Positions 8,838 through 49,600 of a stretch of 64,000 bases of DNA are shown here, piece by piece. Made by a program: the position numbers and the translations under genes. This stretch comes from Parachlamydiales bacterium (GTDB lineage Bacteria; Chlamydiota; Chlamydiia; Chlamydiales; SM23-39). The notes below the pieces were generated by a model. It was not told the origin of the DNA. It searched no databases and saw only the letters and a list, made by a program, of their open reading frames with translations. How positions within the stretch are numbered: position 1 is the first letter of the stretch; each line of letters opens with the position of its first letter. The stretch is from NCBI GenBank assembly GCA_041661445.1, contig JBAZUK010000001.1, forward strand, positions 258,027-322,026. The letters run 5' to 3'.

Positions 8838-10391
8838 TTAAGAATAAGTAGTTTCTGTTTCCAGCTTTTCTTCTTTAACATTTGCTTTTTCTTCAAAGGT
8901 TTTAGAAACTCTGTTTATTGCCATTATCCAAACAGGAACAGTTAAAATGAATATGACAAAGATATATGGAGATGCACCTATAGGAGATGCAAAAACCATA
9001 AGCAGTATCTGCATCATCAAGGAGCTGCCGGATTTTCCCAGTCTAGATCCAATTCCATCAATTACAGATTTGCCTTTTAGCTTTTCTTGAGGAGTAAGAG
9101 GAATAAAGGCCATTTCTTTTGTATCATCAAATATTGTATATTTCAAAGCCCTTGAAAAAATATTTTGAAGAGATCCGAAAAATACGGCTAAGGCAAGTGG
9201 AGAGATTCCAAGAAAAGTTATTGCAAGATTAGAGCTTAAAGAATGATTTTTTAAAAAAAGAAAGTAGAAAAAGCCAAGTCCCGTTAGAAGCAGAACAATT
9301 GGTGTAACCATTGCAGTGAATTTCCATCCAAGTCTTCTTATTAAATTTCCTGATATGAAAAAGGATGAAGTTGCGGCGATGATTCCGGTTAGATAAGTAA
9401 TTTTGCTCGTGTAAGCAGTATATTCAGAAGAAGTTGGATAAAGTTCTTTCATTTGAGATTTCCATAATACTTCCGAGAAATTTATTAAGATGTTATAACA
9501 TAAAACTATCAAGGCAATGTATAAAACATATTTTGATTTAAATGCATACATTACACTTTCTCTAAAAGATATTTTTTGTTTTCCCTTATTCTGAATATCG
9601 CTGCCCATTAAATATCTTTGTGGATAAATAGCTACGTGCATGTATCTGTATAAACCCATTATTAAAATTCCGCATACAAGGATGACTGAAATGAAAATGA
9701 ATAAAGTTTGATCCCAAACAGTATGACAGCCGAAGAATTTTCCGATTCCAGTTACAGCTCCCTGATTAGATAACGCTTTATTTGCTAAATATTCACCTAA
9801 AAGTCCTGACACTATTCCGGCGAAGTTTCTAGAAGTCCCAAAAAAGGCATAATATCTTTTAGCCTCATTAATCGAGAGTACGTCAACAACAAAAATCCAA
9901 AGAAGAAGGGATAACATAATTGTAGACCAGGCTTCAGCCATAATATAAAAAAGTGAAAAATGCCAGTACCTGACTATTGCAATCATTCCCTTGAATCCAT
10001 GGGGCATATGTAATGAGAGATAATCTGACATTGAATCTAATTGATATAAACCCGCATTAGGATTTAGAACAAATATGAAAATTGCAAAAAACACCAGAAA
10101 TATGCTTATCATCACATAAAATATTTTTTCCCGATTAAATTTAGAGGATAGCTTTGTGAATAAGAACGTTAGAAGTATCGCCGATGGTAAAATTGCCCAA
10201 ACTTTTAAAAATGGAATTACTTCTGCACCAGAATTTGGCGCTGTGATGATCAGGGTATCTTTTAATATTTTTAAAATGTGATAATTGAAAGAAATTAAAA
10301 AGAAAAGAAGCAACATTGGCACAAATTTTGATAGTTCATGCCGATGTATGGGCCATAAAAACGATCTTAGTTTGCTAAAACGATCGTCCAT
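8838..10391 (-). CDS. ntt: ATP/ADP (nucleotide) translocase, NTT/Npt family
   Basis: The N-terminus 'KLRSFLWPIHRHELSKFVPMLLLFFLISFNYHILKILKDTLIITAPNSGAEVIPFLKVW' is near-collinear with chlamydial Npt1 as I remember it. Polytopic, 517 aa. Confidence 0.92.
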   Translation of the reverse strand: MDDRFSKLRSFLWPIHRHELSKFVPMLLLFFLISFNYHILKILKDTLIITAPNSGAEVIPFLKVWAILPSAILLTFLFTKLSSKFNREKIFYVMISIFLVFFAIFIFVLNPNAGLYQLDSMSDYLSLHMPHGFKGMIAIVRYWHFSLFYIMAEAWSTIMLSLLLWIFVVDVLSINEAKRYYAFFGTSRNFAGIVSGLLGEYLANKALSNQGAVTGIGKFFGCHTVWDQTLFIFISVILVCGILIMGLYRYMHVAIYPQRYLMGSDIQNKGKQKISFRESVMYAFKSKYVLYIALIVLCYNILINFSEVLWKSQMKELYPTSSEYTAYTSKITYLTGIIAATSSFFISGNLIRRLGWKFTAMVTPIVLLLTGLGFFYFLFLKNHSLSSNLAITFLGISPLALAVFFGSLQNIFSRALKYTIFDDTKEMAFIPLTPQEKLKGKSVIDGIGSRLGKSGSSLMMQILLMVFASPIGASPYIFVIFILTVPVWIMAINRVSKTFEEKANVKEEKLETETTYS

Positions 10392-10639: not shown

Positions 10640-12499
10640 TTATTCTAAAATAGAGTCAAGTGAGTATTGGAGTTCATTTTCGATATTTCTTTCATCTATA
10701 TTTATTGTTTCATCTATCCTGAAAACTAAATTTTTTTTAGATATAAATTTACCTTTTAGCTGTGATGAGTCTTTTATGATTATTAATTCATTGGGCGTGA
10801 GGGCGCCGTTTTGATTTACAGAAATTATGAAAGGATTGTGATTTTTGTCAAAAATGGACCTTCCATCAAAAATATCATTAAAATTTTTATCCGGTATTAA
10901 TTGTGAAAGTATAGTAGGAAAGATATCGATATGGGAGGAAATATCAAATCTTTTTTCATTTTGGTTAAGCAGTTTAAAAATTATTGGAACCTGGATCTGG
11001 TAATTATTTAAATGCGATGAATGGAATAAAGAACCGTCTTCAAAAAATTCTTCTCCATGATCTCCGGTAAAAACTATTATGCTGTCATCATATAAATTAT
11101 TTGTTTTCAAAAAGGTTAAGAATTTTCCAAAAAGATGATCGATAAAGTTAATTGAATTTTTATATCTATTCTTAACAAGCTGCAGCTTCGTTTTATCCTG
11201 AGATAAAGTTATATAATTTATTTTGTCGCTGTAAGGAGAAAATTTTGCTTCAAAGTCTTTTGGCCAGCTGTACTCAGAATGGGTCGAATCTAAGAATGTA
11301 ATAAAGACATTTGACTGCTTATCTTTGGTTTCAAGTATTTTTTTTGTAAGATTATCGATTACGATATTATCTCTGGTTGATGGATCGGATGAAATTAAAG
11401 AAAAGTCATTATAGCTATTAGCAAGAGAGTTATTCTCACCGAAAATGAGGTTATTCATATGAAAATAAGACATTTCCGCAGAGGTAAAAACATTAATTTT
11501 ATAATCTAATTTTTTTAAAATGTTTAATGGGAGAGAGCCATGTTTTGAATTTTTATTGTTTTCTGACCAAAAAATTGGATGTTTTGAATGAAATATTGAA
11601 TACCAAGAAATCTGTGAGGCATTCGCTGCTGAATATGATTTATTAAAGGATATATTTTGTTTTTCAAAGTCATAAATATTTGAAGCAATTTCTTTAGTGA
11701 TAAAATCTTTTCTTAAGGTTTCTACAATAAATATATATATATTAGGTCTTTTCACATGTTCAAAATTTATTTTGTTAATTTTATCCAGAAGAGAATTTTC
11801 GCTTTTTAAAATTTTTATGTTTTTTGCCAGTACTATTTCTTTTTTTAAACTCGGTAAAAATGAATAGAATAAAGGAAGCTTTTGTTCATTTTTATAAATA
11901 TATCTTAGGTTTTTTAAATTTGTTTCTTTACAGAACAACCCGAGACTTATCTGGAAAATCAAAAGAATAATTATACTAATTAAGAGATGTTTTAAAGATA
12001 GAGAAAGGGGTTTTTTTTGACTTAATTTCTTTGTATAACGATACAATAATACGCCTGTGAAAGGAATGGTTAGTAAGCCTATAAATACCAAAACAGACAT
12101 CTGAAGGTTAAGATTTATCGCCCTAAAAGTAATTAAAATATTTTCTAAACCGCCTGATAAAAATATGTTTAAACCGAATAAAATGTTTTTATCCATCAGT
12201 CCAATTATTATAAAATTTGCAAAATAGGAAATTAATAAAAAAAATATTAAACTTATGAAAACTTTTTTTAAAAATTCAAATTTTATACAGCAATAAAAAG
12301 TCATGATAATTAATGTCAAAAAAAATGCTTGGATGAATGAATATATGCAAAAAGATATTGTGGCCCTGAAGGAACTTAAGAAAGTGATGGATAATAAGAA
12401 AATCAAGAAAAAAATATAATTTACATTAAAATTATTATTGATTTTATCTATAAAATATTTTTTAGATTTAATAAAAAAGTTTTTGAAGTTTAATAACAT
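10640..12499 (-). CDS. polytopic membrane protein with C-terminal sulfatase/alkaline-phosphatase-superfamily domain (LtaS/EptA/OpgB-like transferase), paralogue A
   Basis: About 5 N-terminal TM helices. Also has 'PNIYIFIVETLRKDF' (metal ligand plus Thr nucleophile context), 'FLDSTHSEYSWP' and 'FTGDHGEEF'. Collinear with 14116-15993. Confidence 0.75.
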   Translation of the reverse strand: MLLNFKNFFIKSKKYFIDKINNNFNVNYIFFLIFLLSITFLSSFRATISFCIYSFIQAFFLTLIIMTFYCCIKFEFLKKVFISLIFFLLISYFANFIIIGLMDKNILFGLNIFLSGGLENILITFRAINLNLQMSVLVFIGLLTIPFTGVLLYRYTKKLSQKKPLSLSLKHLLISIIILLIFQISLGLFCKETNLKNLRYIYKNEQKLPLFYSFLPSLKKEIVLAKNIKILKSENSLLDKINKINFEHVKRPNIYIFIVETLRKDFITKEIASNIYDFEKQNISFNKSYSAANASQISWYSIFHSKHPIFWSENNKNSKHGSLPLNILKKLDYKINVFTSAEMSYFHMNNLIFGENNSLANSYNDFSLISSDPSTRDNIVIDNLTKKILETKDKQSNVFITFLDSTHSEYSWPKDFEAKFSPYSDKINYITLSQDKTKLQLVKNRYKNSINFIDHLFGKFLTFLKTNNLYDDSIIVFTGDHGEEFFEDGSLFHSSHLNNYQIQVPIIFKLLNQNEKRFDISSHIDIFPTILSQLIPDKNFNDIFDGRSIFDKNHNPFIISVNQNGALTPNELIIIKDSSQLKGKFISKKNLVFRIDETINIDERNIENELQYSLDSILE

Positions 12500-12618
12500 T
12501 AATTAACTAAGCTCTTTTAGATTTATGTTATTTGTTTTTTTTGTTTTTTACAATACTTCAATATGTTAAGATATTATTATAAACTGTTATAATCTATTTT
12601 GATAAAGGTTTGACTTTC

Positions 12619-14115
12619 ATGAAAAATAAAATATTAAAAGTTATTTCAATTTTCTTTCTTTTTGTTTCGACAATCTGTTTTGCTAGTCCGACAAACTTAA
12701 AAAATCAAGAAGTTGTAACTGAAAAAATTTATAATACAGTTATTTTAGGCGGCGGCGTTGGAGCCTTGACTTCTGGAATATATCTTGCAAGGGCGGGATA
12801 TGAGCCTCTTATAATCGAAGGCAAGGTGCCTGGCGGTCTTATAACTCAATCCCACATGGTTGAAAACTGGCCTGGGGAATTTAAAATATCTGGATTGGAT
12901 TTAAGCGAAAAAATTAAAGATCAGGCTGAGAAAAACGGATGTGTTTTTTTATCTAAAGAAGTAATAGATGTAGATTTTTCTCAAAGACCTTTTGTGATAA
13001 CACTGCAAGATATCAACGATAAAAAAATTCAAAAAATCAAGGCTAACTCCTGCATAGTTGCGATGGGGACATCTTCAAATTATTTAAATGTTGATGGAGA
13101 AAAAAAATACTGGGGAAAGGGTATATCGAATTGCGCAGTCTGCGATGGCTCTTTATATAAAAACAAAGATGTTGCGATTATTGGAGGCGGAGATAGCGCT
13201 ATTGCTGAAGCAAACTATTTGTCCAATCTTGCTAAAAACGTTTATGTGATTGTAAGAAAAGATGTTCTAAAAGGAACAGATAGAGAAAAAATAAAAGAGT
13301 TCAAGGACAATGTTAAAGTATTGTTTAACTCCGAAGTTACATCGATCAAGGGAAATGAAAGTGTTACAGGGATAACAGTTTTTGATAAAAAACACAATCA
13401 GAGCAAGAGGGTAGATGTTGATGGTGTTTTTTTGGCATTAGGCTCAAAACCTAATACCAATCTGTTTAGAAACAAATTGAAAATGGATGAAAACGGCTAT
13501 GTTTTAGTTGACTCATCTCAGAAAACATCTGTTGATGGCGTATTTGCTTTAGGTGATATAGTAGACCCGATATTTAAACAGGCAATTACTGCAGCAGGAG
13601 ATGGGGCAAAAGCGGCAATTTCATGTCAAAAAAATCTTGAAAGCAATTTTGTTAATCCTTCTCATTTTGTAGCTTTAGCGGATAAAAATGTTTTTGAGAA
13701 AGCTAGTGCTATGCAAGCTGATCATTCAGCAGCTGGTCAAAATGGAACAGTTATTGAAATAAATAACATGAAACAGTTTGATGAAGAAATCTCATCTTCT
13801 AAAGTGCCTATAATAGTCGATTTTTATGCAACTTGGTGCGGACCTTGCAAAAAAATAGCTGCTGTCATCAAGAACCATTCCAAAGTTTTAGATGAAAAAG
13901 TAAAAATCCTTAAAGTTAATGTTGATCAAAACGAAGGATTATCTTTGAAATATAAGATTAAATCTATGCCGACAGTAATAATTTTTGATAACAAGAAAAC
14001 TGTTTTATCTAAGAAAATCGGGGTCGGAGAAATATCGGATGTTTTTGCGAACTTGGAGAATATGAAAGATCAAAATGCTGCTGAGATAGAAACATATTTA
14101 AGAAATCTAAAATAG
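12619..14115 (+). CDS. trxB: thioredoxin reductase-thioredoxin fusion (NTRC-like) with N-terminal signal-peptide-like segment
   Basis: Motifs: FAD 'ILGGGVGALTSG', redox 'CAVCDG' (13132-13149), NAD(P)H 'IIGGGDSAIAEA' and 'FALGDIVD'. A roughly 70-aa linker follows, then the Trx fold 'DFYATWCGPCKK' (13834-13848) and cis-Pro 'MPTV'. The N-terminus 'MKNKILKVISIFFLFVSTICFA/SP' looks like a signal peptide. Confidence 0.85.
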   Translation: MKNKILKVISIFFLFVSTICFASPTNLKNQEVVTEKIYNTVILGGGVGALTSGIYLARAGYEPLIIEGKVPGGLITQSHMVENWPGEFKISGLDLSEKIKDQAEKNGCVFLSKEVIDVDFSQRPFVITLQDINDKKIQKIKANSCIVAMGTSSNYLNVDGEKKYWGKGISNCAVCDGSLYKNKDVAIIGGGDSAIAEANYLSNLAKNVYVIVRKDVLKGTDREKIKEFKDNVKVLFNSEVTSIKGNESVTGITVFDKKHNQSKRVDVDGVFLALGSKPNTNLFRNKLKMDENGYVLVDSSQKTSVDGVFALGDIVDPIFKQAITAAGDGAKAAISCQKNLESNFVNPSHFVALADKNVFEKASAMQADHSAAGQNGTVIEINNMKQFDEEISSSKVPIIVDFYATWCGPCKKIAAVIKNHSKVLDEKVKILKVNVDQNEGLSLKYKIKSMPTVIIFDNKKTVLSKKIGVGEISDVFANLENMKDQNAAEIETYLRNLK

Positions 14116-15993
14116 TTATTTATTAAATATTTGATCTATAGCACCTTCAAAGGGTTCCAAGATTTTTTCTTTTGAAGGCATATTTAATTCCTTATCATCT
14201 CCATCCTTTAAAGATAAAATTTCTAAGTGCTGATTCTTGAAAATTTCTTTTTTGTTTTTAAATTTTAAGGTTAATTTTTCATTTTCAGAGTGAATGAAAA
14301 ATTCATAAGGAGTTCTAGATCCATTGTATCTGGTTGTAACGACATAGTTAAATTTCTGGGGTTCATATATAGATTCACCTGATAGAATTTCACCATAAAG
14401 GTTTTTTCCTATAATGTAATCGAGGATGCTAGGAAAAACGTTCATATGGGAGATGAGCTTTCTTTTAGGGATAACTCTATCATTTTTGCCCATTTTTAAT
14501 AGAATTGGAATGTTGGTTTGGACTGCAGATAAATGCGAAGCATGAAAAAGGTGACCTTCTTCATAAAATTCTTCACCATGGTCCCCAACGACAATAATAA
14601 TCGAATCATCCCAAAGATTCTTTTCTTTTAGTTTATCAAAAAAAGAGCTTAAAAGAGAATCTACGAAATTTATAGAGTTTTTATATCTGTTTATTATAAG
14701 TGAGATATTGTCTTTGGAAGCATAAGCATTCATATACTCAACATCAGCAATAGGCTTAAACTTTATTTCAAAATCTTTTGGCCAGCTATATAAAAAATGA
14801 GTTGAGTCAAGAAAGCCTATATATACATTCTGATCTGTTTCTAAAGCTTTTTCCATGGCAAAAATTGCGTTTTTATCGGAATCGCAAGGTTCAATCGGGC
14901 TATAATGCGGATATAAGTTAAAAGAATTCGTAAGATGATTGTTTTTGCCGAATAAAAGGTCCTTCATTGCATAATATTTTAGTTCAGGAGAAGAGAATAC
15001 ATTAATTTTATAACCCATTTTTTTTAGAATATTCAGTCCCACTGCGCCTGATTGCCAATTCTTATCTTTGTAATATTTCCAGAGATATGGAAAGTCAGAA
15101 TAAAATAACGAGAACCACGAGATGGGAGTAGCATTGGCATTGGCCAGGGACTTTTCGAAACTGATATTTTCATTTTTAAATTTAAATAGATTGGGGGCTA
15201 TATCTTTTGTAATAAAATCGTTTCTCAAGCTCTCTATTACGAAAATGTAAATATTTGGTTTTTTTTCGATCTGTGGATTCTTTTCATCAATAATTCTTAA
15301 TACATCCTCTTCTTTCATAGGTTTTTTTAAAGTCATCGTCTGATCAATTGTTAAAATATTAGGCTGAACAAATGTTATTTTCCATGGCAACATTCTTGAT
15401 AAACCCGCATAGAGATTTGGATTTATTGTAGAAGAAGCTTTGAAATCCCATATGAGCAGTGCAAGGGGAATGCAAAAAAATATCTGAATAAAATGATCAT
15501 GATGTAAAGGTAGTTTTCTTTTCTTAGAAATTTTATCGCATATTTTATAAATCCCAAGTCCGATAAAAGGCAAAAACATTGCTATGATTCCAAATATTAT
15601 CCATGCAAAAAAAGGTATTCCGGTAGCATGAAGCATTTCTATAAAATTTTCCAAGCTTTCATCTAAAACTAAATCCAAGCCTTCCCAAAACGACATATCC
15701 ATTATTTTTAACATTACAAAATCAATAATATGGGATATAGAAAGAATGAAAAAAAGGCTTAGGAAGATTTTATAAACAAAACCAGGAAGTTTTTTCTTAA
15801 TAAACCAGCCGGCTAGCGCTAAAATAAATATTTCCAGGATTGTCTGCCCATATGCATATATTAAAAAAAATGCTTTCGGATAAAGAGGGGAGGGTTTGAT
15901 TTCCAGAACTTCTAATGAGGCAATAATAATGCTGATCACTAAAAAAATTCCAAAAAATATATAATTTATATCTATATGATTCTTTTTATCCAT
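14116..15993 (-). CDS. polytopic membrane protein with sulfatase/alkaline-phosphatase-superfamily domain (LtaS/EptA/OpgB-like), paralogue B
   Basis: 'PNIYIFVIESLRNDF', 'FLDSTHFLYSWP', 'RYKNSINFVD' and 'VVGDHGEEF' align residue for residue with paralogue A. Its stop directly abuts the trxB-fusion stop (convergent, no gap). Confidence 0.75.
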   Translation of the reverse strand: MDKKNHIDINYIFFGIFLVISIIIASLEVLEIKPSPLYPKAFFLIYAYGQTILEIFILALAGWFIKKKLPGFVYKIFLSLFFILSISHIIDFVMLKIMDMSFWEGLDLVLDESLENFIEMLHATGIPFFAWIIFGIIAMFLPFIGLGIYKICDKISKKRKLPLHHDHFIQIFFCIPLALLIWDFKASSTINPNLYAGLSRMLPWKITFVQPNILTIDQTMTLKKPMKEEDVLRIIDEKNPQIEKKPNIYIFVIESLRNDFITKDIAPNLFKFKNENISFEKSLANANATPISWFSLFYSDFPYLWKYYKDKNWQSGAVGLNILKKMGYKINVFSSPELKYYAMKDLLFGKNNHLTNSFNLYPHYSPIEPCDSDKNAIFAMEKALETDQNVYIGFLDSTHFLYSWPKDFEIKFKPIADVEYMNAYASKDNISLIINRYKNSINFVDSLLSSFFDKLKEKNLWDDSIIIVVGDHGEEFYEEGHLFHASHLSAVQTNIPILLKMGKNDRVIPKRKLISHMNVFPSILDYIIGKNLYGEILSGESIYEPQKFNYVVTTRYNGSRTPYEFFIHSENEKLTLKFKNKKEIFKNQHLEILSLKDGDDKELNMPSKEKILEPFEGAIDQIFNK

Positions 15994-16171: not shown

Positions 16172-16852
16172 ATGAAATGGATTAAAGATTTTAACCTCTT
16201 CTTATTCGATTTGGACGGTCTGTTGGTCAATACGGAAGTTATTCATTTTCAGGCTTACGTTAATATGCTTCGAAGAAGAGGATATAATTTAGATTGGACA
16301 TTTTTAAGGTTCTGCGAAGTTGCTCATTTCGATGATGATAGTCTTAAAGAAGGAGTATATTCAAAATTCCCTAATCTGTATGAAGAAGAACCAAACTGGA
16401 ATGTCTTAAAAAAAGAAAAAAACGATAACTATCTAGACCTTTTAAAATCCAGTAAGGTAGATCTTATGAAAGGCGTAGAAGCTTTATTAAACTGTTTGAA
16501 AAAGGAAAATAAAAAGCTTTGTGTTGTTACGAATTCCTCAAAACCAATGACAGATATGATCATTGCAAAACAACATTTACTTAAAACTATACCCCATTGG
16601 ATAACAAGAGAAGATTATTTGCTCCCTAAACCTAATCCTGATGGATATCTTCATGCAATCAGCTTACATGGGGAAGCCGGAGACAGAATAATTGGATTTG
16701 AAGATTCTTTAAGAGGTCTTAGCGCTCTTCATCAAACCCCTGCACAATGTGTTTTGATAGGAAATATTACAGACCCTAAAAGCAAAGCAATGATCCCAAG
16801 TGATGCATTTCACTTTGAAACATTTGATGACATCCCCGATAAATTGTTATAA
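16172..16852 (+). CDS. HAD-superfamily hydrolase, subfamily IA (beta-phosphoglucomutase/phosphatase-like)
   Basis: Motif I 'LFLFDLDGLLVNTE', motif II 'VVTNSS', motif III region 'GFEDSLRGLSA'. Confidence 0.75.
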   Translation: MKWIKDFNLFLFDLDGLLVNTEVIHFQAYVNMLRRRGYNLDWTFLRFCEVAHFDDDSLKEGVYSKFPNLYEEEPNWNVLKKEKNDNYLDLLKSSKVDLMKGVEALLNCLKKENKKLCVVTNSSKPMTDMIIAKQHLLKTIPHWITREDYLLPKPNPDGYLHAISLHGEAGDRIIGFEDSLRGLSALHQTPAQCVLIGNITDPKSKAMIPSDAFHFETFDDIPDKLL

Positions 16853-17589
16853 TTAACTTTGAAAAGGAATAAACCCTGCGGTTCAGCCGGAGCCGAGGCC
16901 TTCCGTCTATCTTTAGCATTTAGTATTTTCTCAATGGAGTCCAAGGAGATTTTTTTAGATGATACGTCCAGCAGAGTTCCAACGATGTTCCTGACCATTT
17001 TATATAAAAAACCATCCGCCTCAAATTCCAAAATTATTTTATTTTCATTTTCTATGATATCTATTCTAAATATCGTTTTAATCGGTTTGTTTTTTGCGCA
17101 TCCGGAATATTGCTTATTTGAAAAAGAAGAAAAATCATGCGTTCCAAGAAAATATGTAATAGCGTTTTTCATAATTGTTAAATCAAGATCTTTATTAGGC
17201 GTGTATGAATAGTATCTTGTAAATGGATTTTGTATCTTATCTAATGAAATGTGGTATTGATAAATTTTAGATGTTGCAGAATATCTGGCATGAAAACTTA
17301 TTGGAACTTCTTCAATTTCCGTAACTTTAATATCCTCACTTAAAAGGCAATTGAGCGAATATAAAAATTTTTTTTGATCAAAGTCTTTTGAATATGTAAA
17401 ATGAGCTACTTGTCCAATAGCATGAACGCAGGCATCTGTTCTTCCTGATGCTGTTATTATAATATCTTCTTTTAAAATAATCTTTACGGCTTGTTGAATT
17501 TCTTCTTGTATAGTCTTTCTTTCATTCTGGATCTGCCAGCCGAAATATCTGGTTCCGTCATATGCAATAGTTAGCTTATATTTTCTCAT
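16810..17589 (-). CDS. truA: tRNA pseudouridine(38-40) synthase TruA
   Basis: 'KLTIAYDGTRYFGWQIQ' and the catalytic-Asp motif 'SGRTDACVHA'. The 3' end overlaps the convergent HAD gene by 43 nt. Confidence 0.9.
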   Translation of the reverse strand: MRKYKLTIAYDGTRYFGWQIQNERKTIQEEIQQAVKIILKEDIIITASGRTDACVHAIGQVAHFTYSKDFDQKKFLYSLNCLLSEDIKVTEIEEVPISFHARYSATSKIYQYHISLDKIQNPFTRYYSYTPNKDLDLTIMKNAITYFLGTHDFSSFSNKQYSGCAKNKPIKTIFRIDIIENENKIILEFEADGFLYKMVRNIVGTLLDVSSKKISLDSIEKILNAKDRRKASAPAEPQGLFLFKVNYNNLSGMSSNVSK

Positions 17590-22159: not shown

Positions 22160-22850
22160 TAAATGGGCAAATATAAAACACAGAAAAGAAAGGTCGGATA
22201 AAAAAAAGGGAAAGCTTTTTTCCAGGATTGCAAAAGAAATTATAACTGCTGTAAAACAAGGCGGAAGCGACCCTAAAAGCAACAGTAAGCTAAAAATTAT
22301 TATTCAAAAAGCTAAAGATGCCAATTTACCAAATGATATTTTGGAAAGAAATATCAAGAAAGCCTCATCTAAGGAACAGGCAGATTATTTTGAAATGATG
22401 TATGAGCTTTATGGATATGGCGGTGTAGGTTTAATAGTCGAAATAATGACTGATAATAAAAATAGGATTTCTTCTGATATCCGAATTGCAACCAATAAAT
22501 GCGGAGGGACTCTTGCAACTCCTGGAAGCGTAGCATTTAATTTCAAAAGAAAAGGAATTATCAAAGTTGAGAAAAAAAATGCTAATGAAGATGAGCTTTT
22601 TATGCTGGCATCTGAACTGGGAGCTGAAGATTTTCAGGTGGATGAAGAATATTTTACAATAAGTACTAAAGTTGAAGATTTACATAAAATTAAAGAAGGC
22701 ATAAATCTTAATTGTGAAGCAACAATCGAGATGATTCCGAATAGTTTAATTGAATGTTCGGATGAAGATACTGATTCTAATATCAAACTGATTGAATATT
22801 TGGAAAATCTAGATGATGTTGACGTTGTATATCATAATATGTCGGTATAA
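22146..22850 (+). CDS. yebC: YebC/PmpR family DNA-binding transcriptional regulator
   Basis: Signature N-terminus 'MSGHSKWANIKHRKERSDKKKGKLFSRIAKEI', 234 aa. Confidence 0.92.
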   Translation: MSGHSKWANIKHRKERSDKKKGKLFSRIAKEIITAVKQGGSDPKSNSKLKIIIQKAKDANLPNDILERNIKKASSKEQADYFEMMYELYGYGGVGLIVEIMTDNKNRISSDIRIATNKCGGTLATPGSVAFNFKRKGIIKVEKKNANEDELFMLASELGAEDFQVDEEYFTISTKVEDLHKIKEGINLNCEATIEMIPNSLIECSDEDTDSNIKLIEYLENLDDVDVVYHNMSV

Positions 22851-22860
22851 TTTGGTTTTT

Positions 22861-24087
22861 ATGAAAAAAATATTTTTTCTTTTAATGTTTATATTTGCCT
22901 TAAAAGCAAGTGCTATTGAAAAAGTTGAGCTCGGCGTAGATGTTTTTTTCGCTTCCGATGCCTCAATAAAATTAAAAGATAAAAAAATAGCTCTTTTTAT
23001 TAACCAGACAAGTGTTAATAAAGACCTCAAATCTACTTTTGATCTTTTCTTGGAAAATGCAAAGGATTTTAAAACAACAAAAATTTTTACGCCCGAACAT
23101 GGGTTGAACGGCGCTTTTTATGCCGGTGAGAATGTAGATAATTCAAAAAGAGAAGATATTGAGGTTTTATCTTTGCACGGAAAATATAAAAGACCCTCTA
23201 AGGAAATGCTTAAAGATGTTAATGTGATTATTTGCGATATCCAGGAAATCGGATGCCGATCCTATACATATGCAACTACTTTATTTTACATCATGGAAGA
23301 AGCTGCTAAAAATGATATTGAAGTGATAATTTTTGACAGACCAAACCCTATAAACGGTATTATCTGCGACGGCCCTATGTTAGATGAAGAATATAGATCG
23401 TTTCTGGGATATGTTAATGTCCCTTATTGTCATGGAATGACAATAGGCGAGCTGGCATTGTATTTTAACTCTGAATATAAAACAAACTGCAAGCTTGAAG
23501 TAATATCCATGAAGGGCTGGAAAAGGGAAATGAGCTTTGAAGATACTGAGCTTAACTGGATTCCGACTTCTCCGAATATCCCGGAAGCCAGCACTGCCGC
23601 TTTTTATGCTACAACAGGAATCCTCGGTGAGTTAAAACTGGTCAATATCGGAGTAGGTTATACCCTGCCATTTAAAATCGTCGGGGCGCCTTGGATAGAG
23701 GGTGAAAAATTTTGTAAAAGTTTAAATGCTCAAAATCTTGTCGGAGTGAAATTTATCCCATATTTTTTCAAACCTTTTTACGGCCCATATAAAGATAAGA
23801 ACTGTCAGGGTGTTAAGATATTAATAACTGATAAATTAAAATATAGGCCATCTGCCTGCGGATATCTAATCTTAGGAATGCTCAAATCTTTATATCCGAA
23901 AATGATAAAAGACAAATTAAAAAGCTTGTCGGAAGAAAAGATTTTGACTTTCTGCAAGGTCAACGGCAATAAAGAGATATATAATTTTCTTGTCAATGAA
24001 CAATATCCTGCCTGGAAAATGATCGAATTTCAAGCTGACAAAGTTAAAGAATTTCAGAACATAAAGAAAAAATATCTTTTATATTAG
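22861..24087 (+). CDS. DUF1343 family protein (NamZ/YbbC-like exo-beta-N-acetylmuramidase), secreted
   Basis: 'IALFINQTSVN' and 'IFTPEHGLNGAF' family motifs. Signal peptide 'MKKIFFLLMFIFALKASA' from the ATG at 22861. The track extends to 22813 inside yebC. Confidence 0.75.
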   Translation: MKKIFFLLMFIFALKASAIEKVELGVDVFFASDASIKLKDKKIALFINQTSVNKDLKSTFDLFLENAKDFKTTKIFTPEHGLNGAFYAGENVDNSKREDIEVLSLHGKYKRPSKEMLKDVNVIICDIQEIGCRSYTYATTLFYIMEEAAKNDIEVIIFDRPNPINGIICDGPMLDEEYRSFLGYVNVPYCHGMTIGELALYFNSEYKTNCKLEVISMKGWKREMSFEDTELNWIPTSPNIPEASTAAFYATTGILGELKLVNIGVGYTLPFKIVGAPWIEGEKFCKSLNAQNLVGVKFIPYFFKPFYGPYKDKNCQGVKILITDKLKYRPSACGYLILGMLKSLYPKMIKDKLKSLSEEKILTFCKVNGNKEIYNFLVNEQYPAWKMIEFQADKVKEFQNIKKKYLLY

Positions 24088-24290: not shown

Positions 24291-27200
24291 ATGTCGAGTA
24301 TTTCGGTTATAAGAAATAAGTTTCATCTAACATCAAATAATAATGGGTCTGTTTCAGTCCAGCAATCTATTGGCTCGGACCTTCAAGCTTTCAGTGACTT
24401 AAAAAACTCTAATGGGATGGTTAAAAATGACAGCGTGGTGGGATTTAAGGCAAAGTTTAGCGAAATAGCCGGTAAAATTAATTATCGGATTGCATCGGTC
24501 TTTGAATCTTTATTTCCTAAAGATTCCAAAGCAGAACTCCTTTTTGAAAAACTAAAAACATCCCATCAGCTTGTGATTGATGTAAAAGAGGGAAATATAC
24601 TGCTTGAATATGAAGAAAAAGAAGATTCCTGTCAGTTCGGCATGGTAGCTCCTTTAGGAAAAGTTCAATTTTTTTCTTCATCAGACAAACAAGAGTTGAA
24701 AGAAAAAATTTACAAGTACCTGCAGGTTGTAGTTGATAGGCCATATGCCATATATGAAAATCAGATAAAAAATGCATGGGGAGAAGATCAGAAAGAATTT
24801 GAAACTTTTAAAAAGAGCTTAACGAACAAAGGTTTGTTAATTTTTGAAGATGATTCAGTGACATTTTATAAAGATAAAAATAAATCTTCCTTAGTAACTT
24901 TTGAAGGAGCGGATAAAGATCGAAAGCTGGACTTGTATCTAAAATGGCTTTATGAGTACGGACCTGATGAAGTAATTGCTGAAAATATTAACAAAAAAAA
25001 GCTCAGCACTTTTGAGAAAATGGTTTTAGGTTTTATCGGAACAACAGTATTAACCGGCGTCCTTATGGTTCCATATAAAGCGGCTATCGGAAGACTTGCT
25101 CTTTTCCGAAATTCAATTGGACAGAATAATGTTCTTTGCAATGTCGGATTAGTTGCAAGCAGTTTATTCGTCTTAAGGAATCCGAACAATAAAGAAATGT
25201 GTATAGGAATGGTTGCTCTTTCATGTTTACCGATTGCTAGAGGTGAAATTGTAGTAAAAAATCCTGTTCCTGACCAAAAAGTTCTAGTGAACCAGCCTTT
25301 TTCTTTAAACATTGATCTTAATTCAATTTTTACCCAGACAAATCCTGATTTAACTCTAGATTTATCTTTGAGTGTAAATAATAATGCTACTTTGCCCACC
25401 TGGATGAATCTCAAAGCGACCCCGGAGCTTGTTAGCTTATTGGGAAATTTCGCAGCAAGTGCGATTGATGTAGAAGGGAATAGAGCTTATCTTGCCGGAG
25501 ATAGGCGAGGTGTTGGAATTGTTGATATCTCTTCTAAAAAACCTAATTTGCAGGGGATGATACCGGTTTTTGATTCTAATGGGGTAGATGCGGTAAATTA
25601 TATAGTTTATATAACAGATTTAAAAAAGGGACTAGTGATTGCAGATGCATCGGATGCTAAAAATGCAACTGTTCTCAGTTCGATTTTGTCTAACGGAAAT
25701 GGTGTTTGGGTCAGAGACAATATAGCTTATGTAGCAGATGAAGATTTTGCAGCACTGGATGTATCAGATTTAAAAAAACCGGTAGTTTTAGGGCTCATCA
25801 GCTCTCACGGCGCCCAGAAACCTTTCCTTCTTGATGACAAAGCTTATATTCCTTCTAAAGATGTAGGGTTGGATATTATAAAAATAACCGATCCGCAGGA
25901 TCTCCAGCGTCTTGGGACTTTGATAGGCATCAGAGATATCAATAGCGTTTTTGTTGCAAAAAACTTAAGAGCTTATTTAACAGCCTTAAGCCATGGATTG
26001 ATAGTTGCTGATGTGTCAAACCCTGCCAAACAGTTTGTCGTTTTGGAATACGGTTCGAATGTTTATAGCGCTGTTGTTTCTGGAAAGAAGGTATATCTAA
26101 TTAAAAAAGATGGTTTAGAAATTTTAGATATTTCAGAGGATGATAAAGTAAAATCATTGGGAATGCTTGAAATGAATAACGGCTATGATCTTAAATTAAG
26201 AGGAGACCAAGCCTTTGTAGCAGATAATGTTAATGGACTTGATATTGTTGATATCTATAAATGGCATTTATCGGGCAGCCCATCCTGTTCTGATGGTTCT
26301 AAAACTTATCAGGTGAGCCTGCAGGTTAAAAATGATTTAGGTGAAAACGCAGTTAACTCTTTTGCAATTTCAATCCAAAATATAGATCCTTGGGTAGCTC
26401 ATCCTATTGGTGACCAGCGTGTCCATATTGGAACCCAGTATAGTTTTCAGGTTCCCAAAAACACATTTGAAGGAGTTTGTTCAAAGAATTTTACTCTCAG
26501 CGCATTCCAAGAAGATGGAAAAGAATTACCTCCATGGCTTGAATTCGATCCGGTATTGAATATTCTAAAAGGGCGGCCGTCTAAGGAAGAGAGCATTGGA
26601 AAATTGCAAATAACTATCATGGCAACAGATGAAAACAAAAAAAGTGCTAAATGCAGTTTTGGGCTTGATGTTTTTAAAAACGGCATTCAAGTCAATGGAT
26701 CTATTCCTGATCAAAATACCTTTGTCAAAGGATGTTTTAAATATACTTTTGATTCAAAATTATTTATTGATGGAGATGAAGCTTCTTTAACTTATTCTGC
26801 TGCAGACCCCGATGGAAATCCTTTGAGCTGGGTGAAGTTTAATGCCGAATCAAGGACTTTTTCGGGAAATCCTCAAAAAAAGAATTTAGGAAAAACATTA
26901 ATCCGTTTATCTGCAAAAGATGACTACTCCCAGGCTTATGTTGATTTTGCAATAAAAGTTGCTGATAAAAAACCTCATCCGCCGGTAATAAACAAGGGCA
27001 TAAAAAATAGAAAATCAAAAGTTGGGGATCTTTTAGAATTTAAAATAGATGATGATGCTTTTTCAGATCCTGATAATTACAAATTAACTTATAACGCTTT
27101 TTTAAAAGATAAAAAACCATTACCTGATTGGCTGCATTTTATTATTGACACATGCACCTTTGAAGGTAAATCAACAAAATCTGGAATTTTAGAAATAATT

Positions 27201-27821
27201 GTTACTGCAACAGATCCTTTTGGACAGGAGGCTGATACTTCTTTCTCAATAACAATAGAAAATAAAAAGTCTGCTGCTGGCGAGGATATTTCTTTGGTAG
27301 GCTCAGCATTTGTGGGGTTAGGTGCAGCTGTTTCAGCAATATTCTATCGAGATAATCTAAAAACCTGGGTAAATAGAAAAAAATGTCGGGTAGAAACAGG
27401 TGAGGATTTTAATTATGAAATTGAAAGGCTGAAAGCCGAAGATGTTGGATCTATCAAAGTATTCAAGACAAATGATAAAAAATCTAAAGCCCAAAGTATT
27501 TTGTCATTGTTCAGAAATGATTGGGAAGATGTAGATGAAGAAGAGTGGAGTGAATGGCTTGAGCATGAAGAATTTTCAAATCAATTTAGAACTAAAGAGA
27601 AAGTGACAGCCGATCGTATTGGAAAATATAAAATAACATTTTTTGATAAACATAAAAAACCTAAAGAAGAAATTATTTTAGATGTACAGGAACCTTCTAT
27701 TCCATTTAACAGAGATTACAGAGATTATGGATCAACTGGAGATTCGATTTTGCTGACCAGATATGATAACAGCAATGCAAAGATGGTTACTTATGAAGAT
27801 GATGAGGATGATCAGGTTTAG
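24291..27821 (+). CDS. large mosaic membrane protein: N-terminal domain, multi-lobed hydrophobic block, cadherin-like (dystroglycan-type/He_PIG) domains x4, LVIVD-type beta-propeller repeats x7, C-terminal TM and acidic tail
   Basis: Hydrophobic block at about 25020-25245. LVIVD-like 'GVGIVDIS, GLVIADAS, GLDIIKIT, GLIVADVS, GLEILDIS, GLDIVDIY'. Cadherin-like 'LPTWMNLK', 'LPPWLEFDPVLNILKGRP', 'PLSWVKFNAESRTFSGNP', 'LPDWLHFIIDTCTFEGKS'. TM 'LVGSAFVGLGAAVSAIFY'. Confidence 0.7.
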   Translation: MSSISVIRNKFHLTSNNNGSVSVQQSIGSDLQAFSDLKNSNGMVKNDSVVGFKAKFSEIAGKINYRIASVFESLFPKDSKAELLFEKLKTSHQLVIDVKEGNILLEYEEKEDSCQFGMVAPLGKVQFFSSSDKQELKEKIYKYLQVVVDRPYAIYENQIKNAWGEDQKEFETFKKSLTNKGLLIFEDDSVTFYKDKNKSSLVTFEGADKDRKLDLYLKWLYEYGPDEVIAENINKKKLSTFEKMVLGFIGTTVLTGVLMVPYKAAIGRLALFRNSIGQNNVLCNVGLVASSLFVLRNPNNKEMCIGMVALSCLPIARGEIVVKNPVPDQKVLVNQPFSLNIDLNSIFTQTNPDLTLDLSLSVNNNATLPTWMNLKATPELVSLLGNFAASAIDVEGNRAYLAGDRRGVGIVDISSKKPNLQGMIPVFDSNGVDAVNYIVYITDLKKGLVIADASDAKNATVLSSILSNGNGVWVRDNIAYVADEDFAALDVSDLKKPVVLGLISSHGAQKPFLLDDKAYIPSKDVGLDIIKITDPQDLQRLGTLIGIRDINSVFVAKNLRAYLTALSHGLIVADVSNPAKQFVVLEYGSNVYSAVVSGKKVYLIKKDGLEILDISEDDKVKSLGMLEMNNGYDLKLRGDQAFVADNVNGLDIVDIYKWHLSGSPSCSDGSKTYQVSLQVKNDLGENAVNSFAISIQNIDPWVAHPIGDQRVHIGTQYSFQVPKNTFEGVCSKNFTLSAFQEDGKELPPWLEFDPVLNILKGRPSKEESIGKLQITIMATDENKKSAKCSFGLDVFKNGIQVNGSIPDQNTFVKGCFKYTFDSKLFIDGDEASLTYSAADPDGNPLSWVKFNAESRTFSGNPQKKNLGKTLIRLSAKDDYSQAYVDFAIKVADKKPHPPVINKGIKNRKSKVGDLLEFKIDDDAFSDPDNYKLTYNAFLKDKKPLPDWLHFIIDTCTFEGKSTKSGILEIIVTATDPFGQEADTSFSITIENKKSAAGEDISLVGSAFVGLGAAVSAIFYRDNLKTWVNRKKCRVETGEDFNYEIERLKAEDVGSIKVFKTNDKKSKAQSILSLFRNDWEDVDEEEWSEWLEHEEFSNQFRTKEKVTADRIGKYKITFFDKHKKPKEEIILDVQEPSIPFNRDYRDYGSTGDSILLTRYDNSNAKMVTYEDDEDDQV

Positions 27822-46673: not shown

Positions 46674-49600
46674 ATGAGAGCACTAAAGTTTTTGTTCATC
46701 ATAATTCCTTGTTTTTTAAGCGCTAATCCAACAGGAGAGGATGTTGTCCACGGAAGTGCAGTTTTTTCAAGAGAAGATAACAGCCTAATAATAAATCAGA
46801 AAACAGATAAGACAATAATTAACTGGAACGATTTTTCAATAAGCGGAAATGAAATAACAAGATTTGTTCAGCCATCAAAAACTTCAACAGCATTAAACCG
46901 AGTAATAGGGAATGAGATTTCAAAAATATATGGAAATCTAGAGAGTAATGGCAAGATTTATTTAATAAATCAAAAGGGCATTTTAATAGGTCCAAATGGA
47001 AAAATAAACACCAATGGGTTTGTAGCATCAACACTTGATCTAGAAGATAGCGAATTTATTAATGGAAAAGATCTGCATTTTGTATCAGATTTGCAATCAT
47101 TCATTCAAAACTTTGGAACAATAGAAGGTTTGGATGGCGAAGTAATCTTAATAGCTCCGTTTATAGAAAACCAAGGAACTATCAAAGCAAAAAATGAGAA
47201 AGCGGCACTGCTTGCATCAAATGATGTTTTATTAAAAGAAGAAGGATCTAATTTTTTGGTTAAAAGCGACTGTTTTATTGATAACAAGGGAACAATAGAA
47301 GCTGTAGAAATAGAGCTAAAAGCATCAAATGGCAATATCTATTCACTTGCGATTAATCAAGAAGGAATAATTAAAGCTCGAGGCATTGAAGAAAAAAAAG
47401 GAAGAGTTTTCTTGATTGCTGATGGAAAAATGGAAGTGGCCGGAAAAATCACTTCAAAAAGCGATAATGGTGGAGTAATTCATATACTAGCTGATGAAAT
47501 ATATATCAAGGAAGGAGCGACAATTGATTCATCATCGGATAATAATGGAGGAGAGATTTTAATCGGTGGAGATTTTCAAGGTAATAACCCGCAAATAAAA
47601 AATGCTAAAATCCTGCAAACTGCTAAAACCGCTACAATTGAAGCAAGCGCTTTCAAGAAAGGCAATGGCGGAAAAATAATTTTTTGGTCAGATGATCTTA
47701 ATTTATATGAAGGAAATACTTTTGCAAAAGGTGGAGAGATATCAGGGAATGGAGGATTTGTTGAGGTCTCATGTAAAAAAGATCTTGAGTTTAGAGGAAT
47801 GGTAAGCACTTTAGCCAGCAATGGAAAAACTGGATCTCTTTTGTTAGATCCTTCTGATATTACAATTAGCACAACATCTCCAAGTTCTCCCGCTTTTATT
47901 CCACCTATATATGACCCAGCTACGAGCCCTGCTAATCTATGGGTAACGGATCTTAATAATGCATTAGTAGGAAATGATGTTACAATACAAACAACGAGTG
48001 GCACAGGCGGTTCAGGGATAATATCAATACAGAATAATGTTGGAATATCTTGGAGCACTAATCATAGCTTAACTATTTTAGCTGATAAAAATATATTATT
48101 TCAACCAGGGGGAGCTCCAACAATTACTCATAATGCTGCTAGTGGTCAGCTTACTTTAACGGCAAATGGAACTGGAAGCGGCGGATATCATGGAATTAAT
48201 TTGCAAACTTTAAAAATTAATTCGACTTCCAGCGATATTATTTCAATAAATGGTACTGGAGGAACTTCTGGAAGTAATTATGGACTTTCTTTTACAAATA
48301 CTACAATTTCAGCCGCCGGTGATATACAAATAACCGGAATTGGAAACTCAATCAGCAGCAATTCTCAGGGAATACATTTTGTCACTTCTTCCATCAGCTC
48401 TACATCAGGATCTATCACTTTTAATGGCACATCTGGTCCTGGAACTACAACTTGTTATGGTATTGCTATATATCAAAGTAATCCTGGTTTTATTACAAAT
48501 GGAGGGGTTTACGCCAATGGTACAATAACGATTAATGGAATATCTCATGGAAGTGGAACATCTGGATATGGGTCATATATTTATGATTCTATAGTGCAAT
48601 CTACTGGAGGAGGAAATATTTCTGTTACAGGAACCGGTTCGGGAACAACAGGAGCTGGAATATATATAGATGTTTCTTCAACAAATATTTCAACGGCAGG
48701 AACTATGTCTTTTACAGGAACTGGTTCGGGAACTGAAAACGGCATACATTTTTTGAATGGAACCATTCAAGGAAGTGATAATTCAGATATAATTCTTACT
48801 GGAAGTGCACCCGTTGGAAATGACATTAATCTTTTGAGTTCATCAAAAATTATTAATTCAACAGGATCGATTTCGTTATTTAATGATACTTATTCATATG
48901 GATCAGCTACTAATTTTCAAACATCAGGAGCCTTAAATATTTCGCCTCTATTATCTTCAGATTCAATAGGTGTCGGAGATTCGGCAGCAGGAACACTTAC
49001 TATTTCAAATGCAACGTTACAATTAATATCTACAAATGTCGGTTCTGTTAATGTTGGATATCCAAATGGCACACATACATCTCAGGTAGGAGGAATTACA
49101 ACGGCACTATCAAAAGATTTAACGGTATATGGACAAATAATATCTACGGTTGGAAACATTAACATTGGAACTAAAACTTTAAATCTAGATATAGGATCTG
49201 CTTCTGCAGGAAGTTGCACTATCAATAATCATGCATATACTATAGCATTAGGCACTTTTAATATTAATGGGCTAACAGCATTTGATCATGTTTTAAACAT
49301 GTCAAATGGAGGAAATAATACTTGGATAATTACTGCAGCGAATTCTGGTAGTATTTCTTCTACATCATATACTGGAAATATTAATTTTATTGGAATGAGG
49401 AATCTTGAAGGCGGAAGCGGAAATGACATATTTAACATTCAGACGGGTGGAAGCATAAATAGTTTAACTTTTGCAAGCGGAACAACAAAAGAGTTAAATT
49501 ACTCAGGTTATGGCTCTGCGATATCGGTTAATTTACAGACTCCAGATGCTACAGGAATAACGACAATAACAGATATAGCAAATATTACAGATATTGTCGG

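Follow-up and report, generated by a model that had tools for sequence, protein, structure and literature searches.

A thioredoxin reductase-thioredoxin fusion with a conserved, apparently export-directing N-terminus in Chlamydiota and Dependentiae

Background

Fusions that join a thioredoxin reductase (TrxR) and a thioredoxin (Trx) in a single chain are known from several lineages. In one of them, NTRC (NADPH-thioredoxin reductase C of plastids and cyanobacteria), a low-Mr TrxR is joined through a flexible linker to a thioredoxin with a CGPC site at the C-terminus. The compartment in which NTRC works contains NADPH, and the cyanobacterial form carries no signal for export. The TrxR-Trx protein of Mycobacterium leprae and the clostridial "AhpF-homologue" fusions (TIGR03143) likewise combine TrxR and a Trx-like domain in one chain; they are, to our knowledge, cytoplasmic and without a signal peptide. 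As far as is known, the bacterial periplasm gains reducing power only via membrane relays such as DsbD, CcdA, and ScsB, since the cytoplasm retains both NAD(P)H and the flavoenzymes that use it. Here, a TrxR-Trx fusion is described that is encoded in a 64,000-nucleotide stretch of DNA (the window) from a Parachlamydiales bacterium (contig JBAZUK010000001.1, positions 258,027 to 322,026), where it lies between two paralogous genes named SulfA and SulfB. What appears to be new is an NTRC-like fusion bearing a conserved export signal. In other words, judging from sequence, a reducing system that is normally cytoplasmic appears to work outside the cytoplasm.

The fusion enzyme

The fusion consists of a TrxR module followed by a complete C-terminal thioredoxin with a WCGPC site, as a first-pass annotation of the same DNA had recognized. 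Pfam placed Pyr_redox_2 (PF07992) at residues 42-332 (E=7.5e-49) and Thioredoxin (PF00085) at residues 385-472 (E=1.6e-24, 86.3 bits against a cut-off of 23.5). In NCBIfam, the score against TIGR01292 (TRX_reduct) was 322.9 bits, narrowly under the equivalog cut-off of 343.45, and that against TIGR01068 (thioredoxin) was 94.3 bits, just under the cut-off of 96.8. Going by these scores, the protein belongs to the TrxR family without being the canonical TrxB equivalog. The motifs of both modules are present: GGGVGA (residues 44-49), CAVC (172-175), GGGDSA (189-194), VRKDVLK (212-218), and GDIVD (312-316) in the reductase, and WCGPC (406-410) and the cis-Pro motif MPT (450-452) in the thioredoxin.

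An AlphaFold2 (AF2) model built on an alignment of 38 homologues had a mean predicted local distance difference test (pLDDT) score of 87. The TrxR module (residues 31-343) and the Trx domain (379-481, pLDDT >90) were modeled confidently, and the linker residues 351-375 had a pLDDT of <50. The N-terminus was modeled as a helix (2-21) and a disordered stretch (22-30), so that in the model the signal segment would be a separate helix on a disordered tether to the folded TrxR and Trx modules. In Foldseek, the TrxR part matched structures of low-Mr thioredoxin reductases, with a target-normalised TM-score (TMt) of up to 0.93.

The catalytic residues are strongly conserved. G44, G46, C172, C175, G189, G190, D192, and R213 were invariant in the 38 diverse members of the alignment, as were C407, P409, C410, and P451 of the thioredoxin, and K214 was kept in at least 90% of them. 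The catalytic motifs were also retained by nearly all of the best 150 cluster representatives from the wider scan described below. The middle residues of the Trx CxxC varied among these representatives (CGPC, CPPC, CMPC, CPSC, and CPTC). Chlamydial-clade variants of the Trx site included WCRPC, WCKPC, RCKPC, WCNPC, WCSPC, and WCAPC, with the C-x-P-C skeleton constant; such variation hints at tuned redox potentials.

Does the fusion use NAD(P)H? The NADPH-specificity motif of E. coli TrxR is HRRDxxR. The fusion has VRKDxLK at this place, which is still basic, and its use of NAD(P)H is likely on the strength of these motifs. With its FAD motif, its NAD(P)H motif, and its two CxxC motifs all retained across the family, the fusion has the appearance of a functional disulfide reductase driven by NAD(P)H. 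That the NAD(P)H site is conserved also speaks against a role without the cofactor or purely as an oxidase.

Although the fusion shares its architecture with NTRC, its descent seems to be different. The TrxR module superposes on NTRC with a TMt of ~0.77-0.88 and scored 221 bits against Chlamydomonas NTRC (7p9d), compared with 223 bits against a gammaproteobacterial-type TrxR (6bwt). The Trx domain scored 8.8 bits against the Trx domain of NTRC, versus 79.5 (6gn9) and 78.6 (4ulx) against free thioredoxins. Because the Trx domain matches free thioredoxins and the TrxR module is as close to 6bwt as it is to NTRC, the fusion probably arose independently of NTRC. The earlier description of the protein as NTRC-type thus holds for its architecture but is not supported by the scores of its thioredoxin. 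TIGR03143 aligned to residues 37-463 with 235 bits, far under its cut-off of 687.65. No peroxiredoxin gene was seen in the neighborhood of the fusion gene, and a tblastn search found no second trxB or trxA (TrxR or Trx) encoded in the window. A thioredoxin reductase family with a Chlamydia trachomatis member is listed in an appendix table of a pangenome study (PMC3899948), which is no evidence for the genome of the window.

The N-terminal segment

The property that sets this protein apart from NTRC is its N-terminus, which reads MKNKILK-VISIFFLFVSTICFA-SP, as quoted in the first-pass annotation. By charge and hydropathy rules it has the layout of a Sec signal cleaved by signal peptidase I (SPase I): a basic n-region, MKNKILK (+3); a hydrophobic h-region, VISIFFLFVSTI; and a c-region, CFA, that puts C-F-A at -3/-1 of a putative SPase I site between A22 and S23. 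The segment is also unavoidable, because codons 2-46 contain no ATG, GTG, or TTG and the reading frame is closed by a TAA 13 codons before the ATG; the only other start is a TTG located 3 codons upstream. The claim that no internal Met could bypass the segment is thus borne out. Public contigs call the gene from the ATG at 12619 (P0001), and an exact look-up of the TTG-start version gave no match. The identical open reading frame (ORF) of the fusion was found in two independent metagenome assemblies. A twin-arginine motif (S/T-R-R-x-F-L-K) had been reported as missing, and indeed there is no RR in residues 1-36 of the window protein and no RR motif in the N-termini of the 38 aligned homologues. 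A lipoprotein reading of the window protein was rejected because its I-C-F-A does not fit the lipobox [LVI][ASTVI][GAS]C, the +1 position not being a Cys.

Conservation across the family

Is the segment a peculiarity of one protein? The close set consisted of the best 120 homologues (439-583 amino acids), all of which are fusions with a thioredoxin domain; 118 of them were analyzed for their N-terminus. An uncharged run of at least 12 residues, placed after the N-terminal flank and before the FAD motif, was found in 101 of the 118. The homologues without it look like truncated gene calls, the exceptions starting at a Met within the signal of their relatives (for example, ...LPVMPMSAVEP becomes MSAVEP). 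The run had a median length of 17.5 residues including the c-region (interquartile range 15-20), which, as far as sequence can tell, is the length of a signal peptide rather than of a transmembrane helix. In the 38-member alignment, the physical pattern of the N-terminal region was conserved and its sequence was not, which fits how signal peptides evolve. The extension was kept in relatives down to 45% identity and beyond.

Evidence on orientation comes from the charges on either side of the run. The mean net charge was +1.86 in the N-terminal flank and -1.63 over the 15 residues that follow the run, and the N-terminal flank was the more positive one in 111 of the 118 homologues. Under the well-established positive-inside rule, this asymmetry favors an N-in/C-out orientation, with the catalytic domains exported, over a cytoplasmic tether. 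The first-pass annotation had allowed for orthologues that lack the hydrophobic N-terminus and for catalytic domains placed in the cytoplasm. Instead, the segment recurs in essentially all homologues examined, and the charge rules predict exported catalytic domains.

A wider scan, run without a profile against 1.84 billion representatives of clusters formed at 50% identity, returned 2,955 clusters at E<=1e-30, and N-termini were typed in the best 150 of these. An export-type N-terminus was present in 122 of the 150 representatives. It was an SPase-I-like signal in 86, a lipobox ending the hydrophobic region in 26, and a longer polar tail with an anchor-like helix in 10. The other 28 were fragments, canonical short TrxRs, fusions with an N-terminal Trx, or proteins with no hydrophobic core. 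Five relatives of 637-722 amino acids (P0256, P0281, P0300, P0341, and P0344) matched the query in three stretches, which suggests extra inserted or duplicated domains. In one protein of 1427 amino acids (P0259), the TrxR module is preceded by a long N-terminal region that resembles ankyrin by eye.

Distribution and the lipobox clade

The closest named relatives of the window fusion are metagenome-assembled genomes (MAGs) of Candidatus Anoxychlamydiales. Named members outside the Chlamydiae belong to TM6 (P0268), Candidatus Babeliales (P0253 and P0402), and Candidatus Dependentiae (P0438). Several MAGs that carry the family are labelled Verrucomicrobia, and one of these (L091) has chlamydia-like synteny. 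There was no member of the Chlamydiaceae among the named matches, which are a minority of all matches. After its own clade, the next-best matches of the Babeliales query were chlamydial proteins with 43-45% identity.

The fusions of Dependentiae belong to the same family as the window protein (39-47% identity). They have the same domain order, the conserved CxxC and NAD(P)H motifs, and an export signal. They differ in that most of them have a lipobox (signal peptidase II type), whereas the window protein is SPase-I-like, and in that their Trx motif varies (CMPC, CPPC, CEPC, and others). In the sister clade around P0253, to which all four of the named TM6, Babeliales, and Dependentiae proteins belong, a canonical L-x-G-C lipobox was present at about residues 16-23 in 25 of the 32 proteins checked (examples are FLIGC, FLVGC, LSGC, and ITGC). 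A lipobox is recognized and processed only after Sec translocation and is therefore independent evidence of an extracytoplasmic function. A midpoint-rooted neighbor-joining tree of the TrxR module, a rough distance tree that is indicative only and carries no claim on deep branching, placed the lipobox members together and the canonical signal-less TrxRs apart.

Such proteins can be recognized in a published genome. The Babela massiliensis paper notes an "expansion of ... thioredoxin reductases", in its main text among chaperone-like functions, and its annotation table places TrxR fusions in the expanded cluster 28 (PMC4378268). In the same table, one of these fusions, gene_809 (MNKILKYIFLAIILISTCLG...), has one TMHMM helix and is not SignalP-positive, and a neighboring TrxB entry, ending in ...EFYSPLCSLC, is SignalP-positive (PMC4378268).

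Proposed mechanism and alternatives

How would such an enzyme reach the envelope and work there? Because the h-region is very hydrophobic, the signal would probably direct co-translational Sec export across the inner membrane; the export of a fast-folding thioredoxin needs very hydrophobic signals of the signal recognition particle type. SPase I would cleave near A22 and S23, and FAD would be acquired after export. A precedent is Shewanella FccA, a Sec-exported flavoprotein that is loaded with FAD in the periplasm via the Bfe exporter. Electrons would then pass from NAD(P)H to FAD, to the TrxR dithiol, and to the fused thioredoxin. As the NAD(P)H site is conserved, the electrons would most likely be donated by NAD(P)H of host origin that enters the periplasm. 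Chlamydial NTT transporters import host NAD+, so dinucleotides do cross the chlamydial outer membrane. A host-supplied reductant would also fit the way of life of both phyla, since Chlamydiota and Dependentiae are both obligately intracellular and energy-parasitic and possess ATP/ADP translocases (PMC4776705).

In the periplasm or envelope, the enzyme would be a DsbD-independent source of reducing power that opposes oxidation by DsbA/DsbB. Its proposed role resembles that of DsbD, CcdA, and ScsB, namely, providing reducing equivalents to thioredoxin-fold proteins in an oxidizing periplasm, but the fusion has no sequence relationship with them. DsbD takes electrons from cytoplasmic Trx/TrxR and passes them through the membrane, whereas here the whole chain from NAD(P)H to Trx bears the export signal. 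ScsB-type proteins have been reported in Chlamydia (PMC3322552). The window itself encodes a DsbA-like protein ~30 kb from the fusion and, adjoining it, a DsbB-like protein (Table 1). Given this pair, periplasmic disulfide formation is expected, and a reductive counterpart would make biological sense.

How firmly can these proposals be held? Export of the catalytic domains in general, to the periplasm or beyond, is quite probable. The specific reading, a Sec-exported reductase that resides in the periplasm or envelope, is given an even chance. More tentatively, and with chances well short of even, Chlamydiota and Dependentiae, two unrelated lineages, might share an extracytoplasmic TrxR-Trx that is exported or lipid-anchored, runs on host NAD(P)H, and serves as a host-gated envelope-disulfide switch, for example, at the transition from the infectious to the replicative form. 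A role of the fusion in the disulfide switch between elementary bodies and reticulate bodies is speculation.

Several points weigh against a periplasmic reductase. We know of no bacterial periplasm that contains NAD(P)H. Non-covalent flavoproteins are normally exported by Tat, and the window protein has no RR. The signal was analyzed by simple charge and hydropathy rules, and it is from sequence that we infer that the protein is exported and cleaved, takes up FAD in the periplasm, draws on NAD(P)H from the host, and acts on envelope substrates. The preference for NADPH or NADH is uncertain given VRKDxLK. Finally, if the Verrucomicrobia-labelled carriers were free-living, the idea of host NADPH would be weakened.

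One alternative is that the fusion travels beyond the periplasm, through type II secretion or vesicles, and enters the inclusion lumen or the host cytosol, where abundant NADPH would allow it to act as an effector that reduces disulfides of the host or the inclusion membrane. The signal evidence applies here too. An enzyme that needs just NADPH and a substrate would suit secretion; the conserved NAD(P)H site is in keeping with this, as the host cytosol certainly contains NADPH. Sec-dependent chlamydial effectors, such as CPAF, do exist, and the Babela paper argues in its discussion of signal-bearing proteins that many of them are secreted into the amoeba (PMC4378268). However, the lipoboxes of the Dependentiae clade imply tethering to the bacterium rather than release, as do the anchor-like versions, and no secretion motif is visible beyond the Sec signal. 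Conservation across amoeba, arthropod, and anaerobic-protist hosts further suggests a bacterial, envelope-directed target. Secretion beyond the periplasm is thus regarded as unlikely.

Alternatively, the segment could be an uncleaved N-out/C-in anchor that holds a cytoplasmic NADPH-dependent TrxR-Trx at the cytoplasmic face of the inner membrane, for example, near membrane clients. The paradox of NADPH and FAD outside the cytoplasm would then vanish, and both the 10 anchor-like representatives and Babela gene_809, with its one helix and no SignalP call in the annotation table, would be accommodated. Such an orientation is opposed by the positive-inside rule, given the flank charges described above. 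The uncharged run is of signal-peptide length and has small residues at -3/-1 (S-F-A and C-F-A types), and the lipobox of the sister clade is incompatible with a cytoplasm-facing domain. These observations make an anchored cytoplasmic enzyme distinctly improbable.

A third alternative keeps export but reverses the chemistry. Like QSOX, a secreted Trx-flavoenzyme fusion that shows that such proteins can form disulfides, the fusion could run backwards as a thiol oxidase, passing electrons from substrate cysteines through Trx to the TrxR dithiol, to FAD, and to O2 or another acceptor without NADPH. This would explain a flavoenzyme outside the cytoplasm, but the conserved GGGD[SA]A and R213/K214 would be needless for an oxidase and the Trx motif (C-x-P-C/WCGPC) is of the reducing type. 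Furthermore, O2 is not available to the closest relatives, the anaerobic Anoxychlamydiales based on pyruvate:ferredoxin oxidoreductase (PFOR), and a DsbA/DsbB pair is already present. An oxidase role is therefore very unlikely. Lastly, the notion that the extension is an annotation or assembly artefact of a cytoplasmic NTRC-like fusion starting downstream is refuted, with virtually no chance left to it, by the lack of any start before the FAD motif, the two independent assemblies, and the family-wide extension.

The flanking genes

The window has a G+C content of ~31%, and the three ORFs lie where the first-pass annotation had placed them (Table 1). Since their orientation is - + -, the three genes do not form an operon and are not co-transcribed. 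A scan of 12350-14350 found a promoter-like TTAAGA-16-TATAAT at 12566-12593 (+) and another site on the minus strand at 12605-12576; the number of promoter-like sites in this region was not above the shuffle expectation. No terminator was found in the same scan between the convergent TrxR-Trx and SulfB genes.

Table 1. Coordinates of the fusion gene, its parts, and other genes in the window
Feature	Position	Strand	Basis or remark
PFOR (1170 aa) and adjoining TLC ATP/ADP translocase	5008-10391		kept in L083-L086
SulfA, 619 aa	10640..12499	-	ORF; PF00884 77.2 bits; ~5 transmembrane helices; divergent from TrxR-Trx gene
SulfA/TrxR-Trx divergent intergenic region, 119 bp	12500..12618	.	sequence
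TrxR-Trx fusion gene, 498 aa from ATG	12619..14115	+	alternative TTG start at 12610
Signal-peptide-like segment, residues 1-22	12619..12684	+	sequence read directly; helix in AF2 model
Low-Mr thioredoxin reductase module, residues 37-345	12727..13653	+	Pfam, NCBIfam, structure matches, motifs
FAD motif	12748-12765	+	
Redox CAVC	13132-13143	+	
NAD(P)H motif GGGDSA	13183-13200	+	
VRKDVLK	13252-13272	+	
Variable TrxR-Trx linker, residues 346-375	13654..13743	+	low AF2 confidence; alignment length varies
Thioredoxin domain, residues 376-480	13744..14058	+	PF00085 86.3 bits
WCGPC	13834-13848	+	
cis-Pro MPT	13966-13974	+	
SulfB, 625 aa, SulfA paralogue	14116..15993	-	convergent with TrxR-Trx gene; stop codons abut
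HAD hydrolase gene	16172-16852	+	convergent with TruA gene, 43-bp overlap
TruA gene	16810-17589	-	
NamZ-type exo-beta-N-acetylmuramidase	22813-24087	+	
1176-aa protein	24291-27821	+	He_PIG Ig-like and LVIVD repeats
380-aa protein	41102-42244	+	sole Pfam match WH2 actin-binding motif (residues 304-326)
DsbA-like	43566-44225	+	Thioredoxin_4; CKYC; N-terminal hydrophobic segment
DsbB-like, 143 aa	44225-44656	+	CPFC
1778-aa protein	46674-52010	+	no significant domain
aa, amino acids.

SulfA and SulfB flank the fusion gene on both sides in the opposite orientation and are polytopic paralogues of the alkaline-phosphatase superfamily, in keeping with the first description of the locus. They share 37% identity over 595 amino acids (E=2e-117), and each has ~5 N-terminal transmembrane helices (within residues 26-190 in SulfA) and a PF00884 Sulfatase domain of ~77 bits. 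This layout of ~5 N-terminal transmembrane helices and a C-terminal PF00884 domain, together with the metal and nucleophile positions, resembles EptA, LtaS, and YejM (LapC). The Glu position is kept (FIVETLR in SulfA, FVIESLR in SulfB), as is the Ser/Thr nucleophile (ANAS and ANAT, aligned to GNTT of YejM). The D-H metal ligands, which YejM has lost, are retained in GDHGEEF of both proteins, aligned to SDHGE of EptC/EptA. A sulfatase in the strict sense was considered and rejected, as there is no C/S-x-P-x-R and the nucleophile region reads ANASQISW (SulfA) or ANATPISW (SulfB).

To which family do they belong? Against the models for EptA, LtaS, YejM, and MCR, they scored 20-48 bits, compared with cut-offs of 400-1250; SulfA also matched arylsulfatase models weakly, far under their cut-offs. 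The best scores were 47.7 for YejM (cut-off 825), 41.4 and 39.5 for the phosphoethanolamine transferase domain (500), and 24.9 for LtaS (970). Because these scores are far under the cut-offs, SulfA and SulfB lie outside the EptA, LtaS, YejM, and MCR families and make up a separate family. Their earlier designation as LtaS/EptA-like is thus right for the anchor of five helices and the fold but does not extend to family membership. The SulfB family returned 477 matches, whose named members are all chlamydial except for one Verrucomicrobiota-labelled MAG; their source labels include "sulfatase-like hydrolase/transferase", "YejM", and "glucan phosphoethanolaminetransferase". SulfA and SulfB are probably active phosphotransferases, and their catalytic domain is predicted, by analogy with LtaS, EptA, and YejM, to face the periplasm.

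Conservation of the neighborhood

Loci of relatives were sought by scanning contigs with the family alignment and the universal patterns DFYAxWCxPC and NCAxCDG, which gave at least three close loci from MAGs (L003-L005). The synteny set comprised 13 loci (L003-L005 and L083-L092). SulfA was paired with the TrxR-Trx gene in 10 of the 13, and SulfB followed in 7. The arrangement SulfA(-)/TrxR-Trx(+)/SulfB(-)/HAD/TruA/SWIB was found in L083-L086 (52-58% identity to the window fusion), with PFOR and TLC kept upstream, and the same arrangement with different upstream genes was found in L003, L087, and L088 (45-47%). In L004 (45%), SulfA was present and SulfB absent, and in L005 and L091 (46-47%), the SulfA side was present before the contig ended. 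No sulfatase-family neighbor occurred in L089 and L090 (47-49%; L090 is from the Rhabdochlamydiaceae and L089 is similar) or in L092 (Babeliales), the one Dependentiae locus read.

It appears from these loci that the pairing of SulfA with the fusion is old and widespread in chlamydiae but not universal. A neighborhood conserved in no relative had been named beforehand as a finding that would count against a module; SulfA pairing in most loci is the opposite outcome. As for the module of two transferases around an exported or tethered reductase, the hydrophobic N-terminus is confirmed and the charge bias and lipoboxes favor export, while the two-transferase part holds only in part, being absent from L089, L090, and L092.

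Does the linkage reflect function? Functional coupling of SulfA and SulfB with the fusion is possible because the products of both are predicted to be directed to the periplasm. However, the downstream HAD-TruA-SWIB synteny is as conserved as the sulfatase linkage and was kept in nearly all chlamydial loci examined, so the linkage may reflect general chlamydial synteny rather than function. A gene of the Peptidase_S9/BD-FAE/DLH family was found near the fusion gene in L089 (1-337), L090 (1578-3521), and L092 (5850-7868), in the last of which it is directly divergent from the TrxR-Trx gene; it may be a second recurring neighbor of the fusion. In the Anoxychlamydiales relative L084, an IS200/IS605-type pair (Y1_Tnp and OrfB_IS605/Cas12f1-like TNB, 3670-5078) lies between the TLC gene and the SulfA orthologue.

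Other genes in the window

Several other genes in the window bear on the lifestyle of the organism. The adjacency of PFOR and the TLC translocase fits an anaerobic energy parasite of the Anoxychlamydiales type, and the DsbA/DsbB-like pair (43566-44656) sits in a seemingly anaerobic, PFOR-using chlamydia. Together with the nearest named relatives of the fusion, the gene content marks the organism as an Anoxychlamydiales-like chlamydia that is uncultured. The NamZ-type enzyme suggests, by its sequence, peptidoglycan turnover or recycling in this chlamydia. The protein with the WH2 motif may be a host-cytoskeleton effector, and the 1176- and 1778-residue proteins are candidates for surface or secreted proteins. 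A SWIB protein is also encoded in the window.

Implications

Among the papers that could be searched, those on chlamydiae and Dependentiae included, none describes a TrxR or TrxR-Trx fusion that is exported or periplasmic. In those passages of chlamydial and Dependentiae genome papers that deal with thioredoxin reductase, it is mentioned just as an oxidative-stress or chaperone-like function. The family comprises hundreds of clusters, and its named taxa are Chlamydiota, Dependentiae, and a few Verrucomicrobia-labelled MAGs. Even if export were disproved, there would still be a large unannotated family of membrane-tethered NTRC-like reductases. The fusion is also a lineage marker common to Chlamydiota and Dependentiae and suggests that genes were exchanged inside protist hosts. 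The proposed periplasmic reductase, if real, would be the first candidate of its kind: a complete thioredoxin system that lies outside the cytoplasm and runs on pyridine nucleotides. It would imply that dinucleotides of the host get into the periplasm of these parasites. The fusion would be a concrete candidate for the enzyme that reduces their disulfide-cross-linked envelopes inside the host.

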